Assembly (NCBI RefSeq): GCF_003334815.1
Contig: NZ_QOWO01000032.1
Source of the DNA: Escherichia coli
GTDB lineage: Bacteria; Pseudomonadota; Gammaproteobacteria; Enterobacterales; Enterobacteriaceae
Direction: 5' to 3' (one strand)
DNA length: 42,979 nt
Below are positions 40,312 to 42,236 of the stretch, piece after piece; the stretch's first letter is position 1; each line of letters begins with the position of its first letter. The notes beneath the pieces are model-generated. The model did no database searches. It worked only from the letters and a program-made list of their open reading frames with translations, and had not been told where the DNA came from. Both the position numbers and the translations under genes were made by a program.

Positions 40312-41730
40312 TTATTTCCCCTTCCGCGCCGCCTCATACGCTGCCAACGTTTGTACTCTCGCTTCTTTGTGCTCGACTATCGGTTGCGGATAATCCAGCG
40401 TCACACCTGCTTTCTGCGCCCACTTCCACGGCTCATGCACCACTTTCCCTGGCACATCGCGCAGTTCCGGTAGCCACTGGCGGATAAACTCGCCCTCATG
40501 ATCAAATTTCTCGCCCTGGGTTGTCGGGTTGAAAATACGAAAATACGGCGCTGCATCGGTTCCGGTTGAAGCGGCCCACTGCCAGCCACCGTTATTGGCT
40601 GCCAAATCACCATCAATCAGCTGCGACATGAAATATCGCTCGCCTTCGCGCCAGTCGATCAATAAATCTTTCACCAGAAAACTGGCTGTAATCATCCGTA
40701 GCCTGTTATGCATCCAGCCAGTGCTGTTAAGCTGACGCATAGCGGCATCAACAATCGGGTATCCCGTTTTGCCTTCCTGCCAGGCCTGTAAATGTGCGGG
40801 ATTGCTCTGCCACTGTACACGATCCGTCCAGGCAATAAATGGACGATGTTTACACAACGAGGGGTGATACGTTATCAGGTGACGGTAAAACTCGCGCCAG
40901 ATCAGCTCATTAAGCCAGACACTACCGGCCCCACCGTCCAGCGCCTGCGGCTGTTCAGCCAACAAGCGATGCAAGCACTGGCGAGGCGATAACCCGCCCG
41001 TTGCCAGGCTGGCCGACAAACGGCTGGTGCCTTCCACTGCCGGAAAATCTCGTTGTTGCTCATATTCTCCGGCACCGTTCTGGCAAAACTGGCGTAATTG
41101 CGCAATCGCCGCTTTTTCTTCCACCGGAAAATGCGCAGTATCGAAAGACTGACGAGGATAATTCAGCGTAATGGATGGCGAGGGCTCTATCGATCCGCTA
41201 CTACGAACTTTTGGCGCAGCGACGCACTCCGGCATCCCTTCCCGCAGCCGTTTCAGCCAGGCATTCTTAAAAGGCGTAAAGACTTTGTACATCTCGTGAT
41301 TACCGGTCATCACCGCGCCAGGCGGCAGGATCACGCTGTCATCAAATCCTTCACACACCACGTTACGCAGCGCTCTTTCAACTTCCACATCCCGCGCCCG
41401 CTCATTCACTTCATACTGATAGTTATAAAACAGGTGGGTAACGCTGTTTTCCGCGCACACCTGTTTAACTATTTCGACACTGGCGACAAAGTCATCCACT
41501 TCACGGAACAATAAAGGAATACCTTTTTCCGCAAGCGCTATTTGTAGCCCATTCAGTTGAGCATTGATAAGTTCAGCCTGACGCGGCGACATGTTATGCG
41601 TCGCCCACTGGCGTGGTGTAGCGATATACAACGCCAGCACGCGTGCAGACGAATTGCGGCAGGCGGCAGCCAGTGCGAGATTATCGTGCAGACGTAAATC
41701 CTGGCGAAACCAGACCAGATGGGTAGTCAT
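40312..41730 (-). CDS. phr: Deoxyribodipyrimidine photolyase (CPD photolyase, FAD/MTHF)
   Basis: 472 aa starting MTTHLVWFRQDLRLHDNLALAAA; C-terminal FAD-binding domain (…WREFY…, …GWMHNRLRMITASFLVKDL…). Confidence 0.97.
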   Translation of the reverse strand: MTTHLVWFRQDLRLHDNLALAAACRNSSARVLALYIATPRQWATHNMSPRQAELINAQLNGLQIALAEKGIPLLFREVDDFVASVEIVKQVCAENSVTHLFYNYQYEVNERARDVEVERALRNVVCEGFDDSVILPPGAVMTGNHEMYKVFTPFKNAWLKRLREGMPECVAAPKVRSSGSIEPSPSITLNYPRQSFDTAHFPVEEKAAIAQLRQFCQNGAGEYEQQRDFPAVEGTSRLSASLATGGLSPRQCLHRLLAEQPQALDGGAGSVWLNELIWREFYRHLITYHPSLCKHRPFIAWTDRVQWQSNPAHLQAWQEGKTGYPIVDAAMRQLNSTGWMHNRLRMITASFLVKDLLIDWREGERYFMSQLIDGDLAANNGGWQWAASTGTDAAPYFRIFNPTTQGEKFDHEGEFIRQWLPELRDVPGKVVHEPWKWAQKAGVTLDYPQPIVEHKEARVQTLAAYEAARKGK

Positions 41731-42236
41731 AAAACTCCTGAATGGCGCAAGTTAATCACACGCGGCCAAAGTTCGAAATAACGCTGCCCTGAAAGCCAGG
41801 CGTCAGGATAAAGCGCCATATAGTGTTTGATACGCATCAGCGGCGCAAGAAGTGGTTGCTCGCCACGGCGATAACTGTCGATAAGCGCAGCCAGCTGCTG
41901 GCGTTCTGTGGAATCAATATGCGGGCGAAAATAACCCTGAACGTGCATCAAAACATTGGTGTGATCGCGCGGGTTGGCGGGGTGAGAAAGCAAAACAACT
42001 ACGCGTTGGCGGTACTGGTTGTAATAGTCATCCAGATTTTGCCACTGGTGAATATCAGCCACGAACGGGCCAAGTTTGCGGTACTCCGGCTGAGAATGCG
42101 CCAGAAAGACGAGTTTATAGCGGCTGTGATAATCGAGAAGCGCCCCGCGCGTTAAGCCATGTTCTTTCAGTCGATGTAACTCATGAAGGGCAAAGATACG
42201 GATTAGGGTGCTGTCATCAAATCGTTGTAGATTCAT
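41727..42236 (-). CDS. ybgA: DUF1722-family protein YbgA, function unknown
   Basis: 169-aa ORF whose stop overlaps the phr start by 4 nt (translational coupling). Confidence 0.88.
   Translation of the reverse strand: MNLQRFDDSTLIRIFALHELHRLKEHGLTRGALLDYHSRYKLVFLAHSQPEYRKLGPFVADIHQWQNLDDYYNQYRQRVVVLLSHPANPRDHTNVLMHVQGYFRPHIDSTERQQLAALIDSYRRGEQPLLAPLMRIKHYMALYPDAWLSGQRYFELWPRVINLRHSGVL

Follow-up and report, generated by a model that had tools for sequence, protein, structure and literature searches.

The ybgA gene ahead of the Escherichia coli photolyase gene phr: a rudS gene with its catalytic half cut in frame at the ancestral locus

In Escherichia coli the photolyase gene phr is directly preceded by ybgA, and the question raised by this locus is what the ybgA product is and why its gene is held beside that of a DNA-repair enzyme. 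An earlier note on the stretch of 42,979 nt analyzed here (the window) had treated ybgA as uncharacterised and translationally coupled to phr, and had proposed for it a role in photoreactivation or cofactor handling. The ybgA-phr region of the window is 100% identical to K-12-type E. coli genomes in which the genes are annotated ybgA and phrB, and the locus is the E. coli K-12 ybgA-phr operon, which was reportedly described in 1984. Moreover, the ybgA region was found in 5423 of 5426 complete E. coli genomes. The features of the gene pair are listed below.

40312..41730, minus strand: phr (phrB), the second gene of the operon, an open reading frame of 472 aa (RefSeq annotation).
41727..41730, minus strand: ATGA overlap of the ybgA stop and the phr start, read directly from the sequence.
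41735..41739, minus strand: Shine-Dalgarno (SD) sequence AGGAG of phr, 4 nt before the ATG and within the last ybgA codons.
41727..42236, minus strand: ybgA coding sequence, an open reading frame of 169 aa plus stop.
42242..42246, minus strand: SD sequence AGGAG of ybgA, 5 nt before the ATG and orthologous to the rudS SD.

Phr matches NCBIfam PRK10674, deoxyribodipyrimidine photo-lyase, at 958 bits. YbgA matches NCBIfam PRK10167 (NF007549) over residues 1-169 of 169 at 348 bits, compared with a cutoff of 237, while its residues 41-158 match Pfam DUF1722 (PF08349, 6e-35) over model positions 1-117 of 117. Within the stand-alone DUF1722 family (PF08349; PRK10167), YbgA (E. coli b0707) is the type member and displays no difference. 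The description of ybgA as uncharacterised is out of date, as DUF1722 is the tRNA-binding domain of RudS and YbgA itself has been assayed (PMC11417400). RudS is a tRNA 4-thiouridine (s4U) desulfidase, a fusion of TudS/DUF523 with DUF1722 (Jamontas et al. 2024, PMC11417400). Its N-terminal TudS domain carries a [4Fe-4S] cluster and converts 4-thiouridine at tRNA position 8 to uridine, and tRNA is bound by its C-terminal DUF1722 domain, which docking and mutagenesis place against the anticodon region; the enzyme takes s4U off tRNA and lessens UVA growth delay (PMC11417400). Approximately 21% of DUF1722 genes are stand-alone (PMC11417400). In the present analysis, YbgA aligns to the RudS-like profile PHROG 3275 over positions 162-315 of 319 only, and its DUF1722 domain is 50-67% identical to Enterobacterales RudS over the whole length. 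No Pfam match to the TudS/DUF523 domain (PF04463) was obtained in YbgA, and all seven cluster-ligand and catalytic positions of RudS are deleted in the alignment. The ybgA gene corresponds to the C-terminal half of an ancestral rudS gene, and its product is a DUF1722 protein that stands alone. The AF2 model of YbgA (pLDDT 93.3) is all-helical and displays the all-alpha DUF1722 fold of about eight helices, in two groups of four as described for the DUF1722 domain of RudS_KT. No cofactor-binding features were seen in this model, nor were there flavin- or folate-related fold matches of weight.

The missing half can be located by DNA alignment with full-length Citrobacter rudS. The E. coli ATG and three further codons align with the rudS start and are followed by a single gap of 450 nt, i.e., 150 codons in frame, covering the entire catalytic TudS domain.

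42224..42227, minus strand: approximate scar of the 450-nt deletion, between ybgA codons 4 and 5.

Upstream of this point the GTCTACACTTA element, AGGAG and ATG are common to E. coli ybgA and Citrobacter rudS. By synteny and DNA alignment, the position, start codon, SD and -10 element of ybgA are orthologous to those of Citrobacter rudS, and on this evidence ybgA is the Escherichia orthologue of rudS. A tblastn search revealed no remnant of TudS coding sequence upstream of E. coli ybgA; a weak in-frame match there (E 0.27) proved in the DNA alignment to be the conserved start region. In the TudS-less alleles of the Citrobacter freundii group the corresponding gap is 384 nt. Furthermore, in comparison with Citrobacter werkmanii a gap of 18 nt is present at the 3' end of ybgA, where the stop codon and spacer are gone, in Escherichia only. 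In the Escherichia lineage, then, a 450-nt in-frame deletion after codon 4 took the whole TudS domain, and the ancestral -10 element, SD and start codon survived it. The second deletion, of 18 nt, took the stop and spacer, and the ATGA of phr now closes the shortened frame.

The surroundings of the gene were compared in 80 species-representative Enterobacterales loci with a DUF1722 gene. In 64 of these phr directly follows the DUF1722 gene, and the pair is mostly flanked by ybfA on the upstream side and by ybgI on the downstream side (order ybfA-X-phr-ybgI). Intact RudS of about 318 aa is encoded by 53 of the 64 phr-linked loci, and each of these 53 proteins possesses all seven residues aligned to P0121 (C12, C44, E46, R55, S107, S109 and C110). 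In 16 of the 80 loci rudS is located away from phr. TudS-less or degenerate alleles are phr-linked without exception (13/13), and all unlinked rudS copies have TudS intact (16/16). The TudS domain is absent in Escherichia, the Citrobacter freundii group, the Klebsiella oxytoca group/Raoultella, Trabulsiella and Yersinia. In Budvicia, Tatumella and Leminorella the N-terminal half has degenerated. A stand-alone DUF1722 gene followed by a photolyase gene is also found on a distant metagenomic contig (L092); three other distant stand-alone DUF1722 proteins come from contigs too short for their neighbourhood to be judged. The pairing has been published for Shewanella (PMC4336711) and for LitR-controlled light operons of Pseudomonas (PMC11417400). 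Since the profile scan of genomes gave Enterobacterales only, wider co-occurrence rests on the literature and L092. The conserved pairing with photolyase that the earlier note had asserted is well borne out: with 64 of 80 loci, the metagenomic contig and the published cases, the co-occurrence lies far beyond chance.

At the junction, the overlap of 4 nt consists of the stop TGA (41729-41727) and the start ATG (41730-41728). The plus strand has tcat at 41727-41730, which is ATGA on the minus strand, where the junction reads ...CAT TCA GGA GTT TTA TGA / ATG ACT ACC. The overlap reported previously was therefore confirmed by direct reading, and the co-expression that it had been taken to imply is almost certain from the tight linkage. 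It should be noted that genes overlapping within bacterial operons do so most often by a 4-nt ATGA, and such a junction is in itself not unusual. The overlap is common to the four Escherichia lineages compared (K-12, a B2 strain, E. albertii and a divergent Escherichia) and is absent outside Escherichia among the 64 phr-linked Enterobacterales loci; in the other genera of this set stop and start lie 1-163 nt apart (median about 13-14 nt), a spacing of about 10-20 nt being usual. Judged from these sequences, the overlap is lineage-specific and recent. A GGAG-type SD with equal spacing is kept before phr in almost all of the 64 loci, whether the genes overlap or not. No terminator-like site was found between ybgA and phr, no RNA family was detected by Rfam in ybgA or at the junction, and structure occluding the phr start was not significant (z = -0.95). 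Within ybgA, the sigma-70 scan revealed no internal promoter for phr. The pair has the features of coupled genes, namely the same strand, a stop/start overlap and the absence of an intergenic terminator, and translational coupling from ybgA to phr is plausible; the overlap probably permits some termination-reinitiation. Since phr has its own SD, it would not be dependent on reinitiation from ybgA. The E. coli pairs trpE-trpD and trpB-trpA are translationally coupled through ATGA, and ybgA-phr resembles them in its same-strand 4-nt overlap and in the position of the downstream SD inside the upstream gene. It differs from the trp pairs in that its overlap appears lineage-specific and recent and phr retains a strong SD of its own.

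Upstream of ybgA, two further features can be observed.

42262..42272, minus strand: putative sigma-S-type extended -10 element of the ybgA-phr promoter, TCTACACTTAC, with the hexamer TACACT at 42265-42270.
42274..42979, minus strand: K-12-lineage insertion, the end of an ISAs1/H-repeat (ybfD pseudogene) remnant (NCBIfam transpos_ISAs1, RefSeq).

The sequence at 42262-42272 resembles the sigma-S consensus KCTAYRCTTAA, reportedly described by Weber and colleagues in 2005; elements of this type go with a weak or absent -35. A scan with the sigma-70 consensus gave nothing upstream of ybgA, the TCTACACTTAC site included. Among 69 phr-linked loci, 51 have the motif CTA[CT][AG]CT 32-55 nt before the start codon, compared with 1 of 16 unlinked rudS loci. 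Moreover, ybgAp1 is among the listed sigma-38 promoters (bioRxiv 10.1101/2020.02.05.936344). The ISAs1/H-repeat remnant replaces the ancestral spacer between ybfA and ybgA to within 2-3 nt of the -10 element, and in K-12 its junction falls at the -35 position; in B2 strains the match to the window is confined to positions from 42274 down, and ybfA is located 100 nt before ybgA. A hairpin in the ybgA 5'UTR that would sequester the SD (CUCCUG/CAGGAG) was considered and rejected, with z = -1.25 in E. coli and a mean z of about 0 over 51 loci.

Analysis of divergence indicates that what is left of the gene has been maintained. Among the four Escherichia lineages dN/dS is 0.11-0.17 for ybgA, compared with 0.076-0.117 for phr, and the 169-aa frame is intact in all four of these divergent lineages. 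The ybgA remnant is under purifying selection. There are 68 positions conserved at a level of at least 95% in 71 full-length Enterobacterales RudS proteins; 53 of the 68 are kept in E. coli YbgA, and 40 persist in every one of the eight TudS-less proteins compared. The motifs retained in E. coli YbgA are HSRYKL, AHSQ, YR.LG, HTNVL.H.QGYF, YR, P..AP and Q.YF, and its core motif is HTNVLMHVQGYF. The changed positions are concentrated in the linker (RENF) and in the tail at the C terminus, the ends beside the lost domain. The pI is 9.3-9.7, compared with 9.66 for full-length RudS domains, the basic charge being kept in Escherichia and Citrobacter; it is lost in the DUF1722 proteins of Yersinia and Enterobacter sp. 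10-1, which are neutral or acidic (pI 6.2-7.3). Relative to Phr, DUF1722 evolves at a rate approximately 1.4 times higher in TudS-less lineages (ratio 0.96 versus 0.70). The faster evolution and the lost charge fit a relaxed or changed function. P89 of K-12 YbgA is Arg in most relatives, and by numbering offset this Arg is tentatively equivalent to R244 of RudS_KT, the mutation of which weakened activity. Pro is also present at this position in several full-length RudS proteins, and P89 was therefore rejected as a loss-of-function change and given no weight. Among E. coli and Shigella sequences, many shortened YbgA variants of 95-144 aa are present.

Published experiments bear on the function of YbgA directly. 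Its overexpression had no significant effect on s4U content, unlike that of six RudS homologues, and growth on thiouracil was also unchanged (PMC11417400); no other activities of YbgA were assayed in these published tests. As circumstantial evidence, loss of ybgA in the Keio collection confers hypersusceptibility to a LeuRS inhibitor, as it does in the tRNA-modification mutants trmU, trmC and yheM (PMC12457515). We consider it reasonably probable that ybgA is a TudS-deleted rudS orthologue whose product is a probable non-catalytic tRNA binder, linked to phr by regulation and not by mechanism. YbgA is probably a non-catalytic tRNA binder, which would still be able to bind tRNA and unable to desulfurise it. 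The gene rudS is placed directly upstream of phr across Enterobacterales behind a conserved sigma-S-like -10 element. Because the partner of phr is usually a complete tRNA-modifying enzyme that also occurs unlinked to phr (16/80), the linkage is best read as co-regulation of two distinct defences against near-UV; and because ybgA is a rudS remnant, the simplest reading of its link with photolyase is shared regulation under UV stress and not help in DNA repair. No evidence emerged for the suggested role in photoreactivation or cofactor handling. YbgA would be co-made with photolyase in stationary phase or stress as a near-UV defence module, the link between them probably being regulatory rather than mechanistic, and its action might be to shield, sequester or sense tRNA that contains s4U or has been cross-linked by UVA. 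A more specific proposal, which we regard as unlikely, is that YbgA has been kept as a non-catalytic tRNA ‘reader’, made with photolyase under sigma-S control, which would bind tRNA that contains s4U or is UVA-cross-linked (s4U8-C13), tuning near-UV growth delay and the stringent response; in its boldest version, YbgA would be an adaptor bringing photolyase to damaged RNA. If this were true, recurrent and independent loss of TudS with DUF1722 kept in several enterobacterial genera would represent a repeated shift from erasing a photosensor to managing it.

Other explanations may be weighed against this regulatory reading. The ybgA frame could be kept mainly to feed ribosomes into phr through the ATGA, its protein having little or no function. 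The phr SD lies inside ybgA owing to the 4-nt overlap, the deletion that tightened the junction created that overlap, and the linkage of TudS-less alleles (all 13 beside phr, the 16 unlinked copies all intact) is as expected if the remnant survives partly by sitting between the promoter and phr. However, the dN/dS of 0.11-0.17 reflects selection on the amino-acid sequence beyond an open frame; 53 of the 68 positions conserved across the family are retained; a conserved SD of its own precedes phr, other genera express phr across a gap of 3-30 nt, and the phr start is not occluded by stable structure. This explanation is judged improbable. Far less credible still is that ybgA is a decaying pseudogene heading to loss: the catalytic domain is gone and shortened variants are numerous in E. 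coli and Shigella, but the full frame persists in four Escherichia lineages at a dN/dS of about 0.1-0.17, and the region is present in nearly every complete genome.

It could also be supposed that YbgA directly aids photoreactivation, for example in the loading or protection of FAD/MTHF or in the targeting of photolyase. Its conserved adjacency to phr would suit such a role, and the name ‘photoreactivation-associated protein’ is used in some database entries and in PMC4336711. Against it, the homologues of YbgA are the tRNA-binding half of a tRNA desulfidase, and full-length rudS is also found in carotenoid clusters (PMC11417400), in addition to the 16 of 80 loci where it stands without phr. 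The helical model described above is no more favorable to this role, and E. coli photolyase, once purified, is known to need no accessory protein for full activity. Direct aid to photoreactivation is thus considered very unlikely. A somewhat different suggestion is that after the loss of TudS the helical domain took on a role that has nothing to do with tRNA, for instance in protein binding or regulation. The faster evolution relative to Phr in all TudS-less lineages, the neutral or acidic charge in Yersinia and Enterobacter sp. 10-1, and the recurrent loss of TudS across genera with DUF1722 retained agree with it; Escherichia and Citrobacter nevertheless retain both a basic charge and those motif loops that have been implicated in contacting tRNA, and no positive evidence for another partner emerged. 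A gain of this kind is judged distinctly unlikely, and a retained affinity for tRNA is preferred.

In comparison with known systems, YbgA shares with RudS the C-terminal DUF1722 domain, the chromosomal position, the -10 element, SD and start codon, and the placement upstream of phr. It differs in lacking TudS, with its cluster ligands (three Cys) and the catalytic Glu, Arg and two Ser, and in its linker and C-terminal tail, where motifs conserved in RudS have diverged. Unlike RudS, YbgA cannot be a desulfidase, in agreement with the unchanged tRNA s4U on overexpression. The enterobacterial stand-alone form came about by internal deletion at the ancestral locus and not by a split into separate genes for TudS and DUF1722, which had been raised as a possibility (PMC11417400). 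As in the Pseudomonas LitR-phrB-rudS and Shewanella/Vibrio RpoE2-ChrR ybgA-phrB-cfa operons, a DUF1722 gene is co-transcribed with a CPD photolyase gene. The photolyase operons of Pseudomonas, Shewanella and Vibrio belong to a UV, light or oxidative-stress regulon; the E. coli locus, by contrast, has no adjacent LitR/MerR or ECF sigma gene and instead displays a sigma-S-like -10 element. We know of no light induction of E. coli phr.

As the gene pair, the DUF1722 family and the photolyase linkage have all been published, the finding as the earlier note stated it is not new. The new point is modest and evolutionary: ybgA is rudS with its catalytic half cut in frame at the ancestral locus. Similar loss of TudS recurs in phr-linked Enterobacterales copies, and the tRNA-binding half is still under selection. 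Regarding annotation, the label ‘photoreactivation-associated protein’ should not be taken to denote a photolyase helper. UVA growth delay is described in the literature as stronger in E. coli than in the RudS-bearing Enterobacter cloacae, and the truncation of rudS bears on this difference. A sharper question is thereby raised, namely the role of a tRNA-binding domain without its enzyme.

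The end of the window carries the E. coli K-12-type locus in reverse orientation, and the ybgA-phr gene pair as such is already known; the ybgA region was found in 5423 of 5426 complete E. coli genomes. The features concerned are as follows.

38681-40162, plus strand: dtpD
40312-41730, minus strand: phr (phrB), matching NCBIfam PRK10674
41727-42236, minus strand: ybgA, matching Pfam DUF1722 and NCBIfam PRK10167
41735-41739, minus strand: phr Shine-Dalgarno sequence AGGAG, 4 nt 5' of the ATG, within the final ybgA codons
42262-42272, minus strand: putative -10 element TCTACACTTAC, the window copy of the CTA[CT][AG]CT motif
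42274-42979, minus strand: ISAs1/H-repeat pseudogene ybfD, beyond ybgA

Positions 41727-41730 are tcat on the plus strand, so that the stop codon of ybgA (TGA) and the start codon of phr (ATG) overlap in a coding-strand ATGA, exactly as the earlier note had read it. Neither the junction nor the 5'UTR showed significant RNA structure, and Rfam matched no family across ybgA and the junction. The convergent dtpD-phr intergenic region (40163-40311) contains REP-type repeats, an Rfam ES036 (CssrF) sRNA match at 40207-40249 (minus strand; 75 bits, above the gathering score) and several naRNA4 (CssrE)-like matches, all below the gathering score. A five-tRNA cluster (Lys, Val, Lys, Val, Lys; 1-683, minus strand) lies at the window start, and the remainder is the well-known tol-pal, cyd, mng, suc, sdh, gltA, ybgDQPO, nei and pxp region.

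The description of DUF1722 as uncharacterised is outdated, since it is the tRNA-contacting part of RudS (PMC11417400). TudS (DUF523) is a [4Fe-4S] thiouracil desulfidase, its fusions with DUF1722 were named RudS, and RudS strips 4-thiouridine (s4U) from tRNA (Jamontas et al. 2024, PMC11417400). RudS lessens UVA-induced growth delay, and docking and mutagenesis place the DUF1722-tRNA contact at the anticodon region (PMC11417400). E. coli YbgA was assayed there as a stand-alone DUF1722 protein, and its overexpression left thiouracil growth and tRNA s4U content unchanged (PMC11417400); a literature search of later papers found no function for YbgA. Hypersusceptibility to epetraborole, a LeuRS inhibitor, is listed for the Keio ybgA deletion and for the tRNA-modification mutants trmU, trmC and yheM (PMC12457515); for ybgA it may reflect polarity on phr or screen noise.

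The nearest relatives of YbgA outside Escherichia (57-64% identity) include DUF523+DUF1722 proteins, and all intermediates from full RudS to bare DUF1722 are present in the alignment. A genome scan with a single representative of each species yielded 80 loci, all from Enterobacterales. A DUF1722 gene lies directly upstream of phr in 64 of these, mostly with ybfA upstream and ybgI downstream, a conserved pairing with photolyase within this order. A protein of about 318 aa with all seven cluster-ligand or catalytic residues (C12, C44, E46, R55, S107, S109 and C110, numbered as in P0121) is encoded by 53 of the 64 phr-linked genes, and one further gene has all except the aligned R55. The other 16 loci are full-length rudS elsewhere in the genome, without phr inside 10 kb (Enterobacter, Lelliottia, Kosakonia, Phytobacter, Cedecea, Proteus and one Yersinia). 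In Shewanella, an RpoE2-dependent operon with ybgA first includes phrB (PMC4336711).

At the level of DNA sequence, alignment of E. coli with Citrobacter from the ybfA end to the phr start demonstrates both that ybgA is orthologous to rudS and that it arose by deletion. The GTCTACACTTA element, the AGGAG Shine-Dalgarno sequence and the ATG of ybgA align base for base with full-length Citrobacter rudS, followed after four codons by a single 450-nt (150-codon) gap in E. coli that is exactly the TudS domain. In Citrobacter alleles without this domain (TudS-less), 384 nt of that region are missing and the initial ~22 codons (MSKRIPVGIHTC...) remain. The spacing of ybfA in B2 strains, 100 nt upstream of ybgA and equal to that of the relatives' rudS, agrees with deletion, as does the PHROG match of YbgA, which spans only profile positions 162-315 of 319. 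Compared with C. werkmanii, Escherichia is also missing 18 nt at the 3' end. This loss took the stop codon and spacer, so that the ybgA frame enters the phr Shine-Dalgarno sequence and terminates in ATGA. It follows that the overlap is recent and specific to Escherichia. In other genera, between 1 and 163 nt separate stop from start (median about 13-14 nt), and GGAG is conserved 5' of the phr ATG. A neighbour-joining tree built from the DUF1722 region unites Escherichia and TudS-less Citrobacter alleles in a single clade with long branches, suggesting a common first deletion or transfer of a truncated allele.

In the genome scan, TudS-less alleles occurred in Escherichia, part of the Citrobacter freundii group, Enterobacter sp. 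10-1 and Yersinia, and in Budvicia the N-terminal half is degenerate. Protein-database clusters added TudS-less cases in the Klebsiella oxytoca group, Raoultella and Trabulsiella, and degenerate N-terminal halves in Tatumella and Leminorella. Each of the 13 alleles that are TudS-less or degenerate is linked to phr, and TudS was lost in none of the 16 unlinked rudS (loci L001-L088); since the loci are phylogenetically non-independent, this is no more than a pattern. The deletion origin and this recurrent loss are small additions, not found in the searchable literature. One Yersinia aldovae genome (L086, L078) carries a TudS-less ybgA and an intact full-length rudS at a separate locus; the phr downstream of the former is apparently frameshifted (two tblastn segments). 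DNA ~65% identical to a Citrobacter TudS domain occurs in 123 of 5426 complete E. coli genomes, so RudS absence is true of K-12 and about 98% of E. coli, not all. Two examples inspected (L093 4941-5900, L094 4941-5900) are accessory full-length 319-aa 'DUF523 and DUF1722' RudS-type genes adjoining a DUF3833 gene on a genomic island or large plasmid.

Because every TudS-less or degenerate allele is phr-linked, somewhat more weight falls on the alternative that the ybgA frame is kept chiefly to serve phr as an expression scaffold. Amino-acid-level constraint on YbgA argues against this as the sole reason. The dN/dS is 0.11-0.165 for ybgA vs 0.076-0.117 for phr (K-12, B2, E. albertii and a divergent Escherichia lineage). 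E. coli YbgA retains 53 of the 68 positions that reach at least 95% conservation across 71 full-length RudS, and 40 of the 68 are unaltered in all eight TudS-less proteins examined; changed positions cluster in the linker (RENF) and C-terminal tail (P..L.LR), beside the attachment site of the lost domain. The pI is 9.3-9.7 in Escherichia and Citrobacter TudS-less proteins vs 9.66 for the domain of full-length enzymes. Pointing the other way, the basic charge is gone from the Yersinia and Enterobacter sp. 10-1 versions, and relative to Phr the domain evolves about 1.4 times faster in TudS-less lineages (0.96 vs 0.70; Yersinia, 1.30 vs 0.75). YbgA may still bind tRNA. A direct photolyase-accessory role for YbgA found no support. 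The earlier suggestion of photoreactivation or cofactor handling holds in its general direction, UV stress, but not in its target, which would be tRNA instead of photolyase or cofactors.

The motif CTA[CT][AG]CT, mostly GCTACACTTAA, lies 32-55 nt before the start codon in 51 of 69 phr-linked loci vs 1 of 16 unlinked rudS. The motif upstream of ybgA presumably fits the sigma-S extended -10 consensus. Use of ybgA as an RpoS-regulon reporter is on record, and a network study assigned phr and ybgA to MarA. The promoter ybgAp1 appears in a list of sigma-38 promoters (bioRxiv 10.1101/2020.02.05.936344). In K-12-type strains the ISAs1 remnant (ybfD pseudogene) stops 2-3 nt upstream of the conserved -10 element, and the -35 region therefore differs among E. 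coli lineages. The remnant supplants the ancestral -35 and spacer, whereas B2 strains have ybfA and its terminator 100 nt upstream (compared locus L008 3938-4039), so promoter strength may differ by lineage. In Erwinia, Pantoea and relatives (L046-L066), a 5'UTR sequence absent from Escherichia, CCTCTACAAG-N-GGAGGTTGTACAAGTATG, is shared 40 nt upstream of rudS, with CCUCU able to pair with the GGAGG Shine-Dalgarno sequence and operator-like TGTACA-type repeats.

The ybgA-phr pair is best read as the derived state of a conserved stress operon, rudS-phr. The conserved operon joins two independent answers to near-UV, phr repairing pyrimidine dimers in DNA and rudS removing the tRNA photosensor s4U. 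In Escherichia the removal chemistry is gone, but the half that binds tRNA in RudS is retained under selection.
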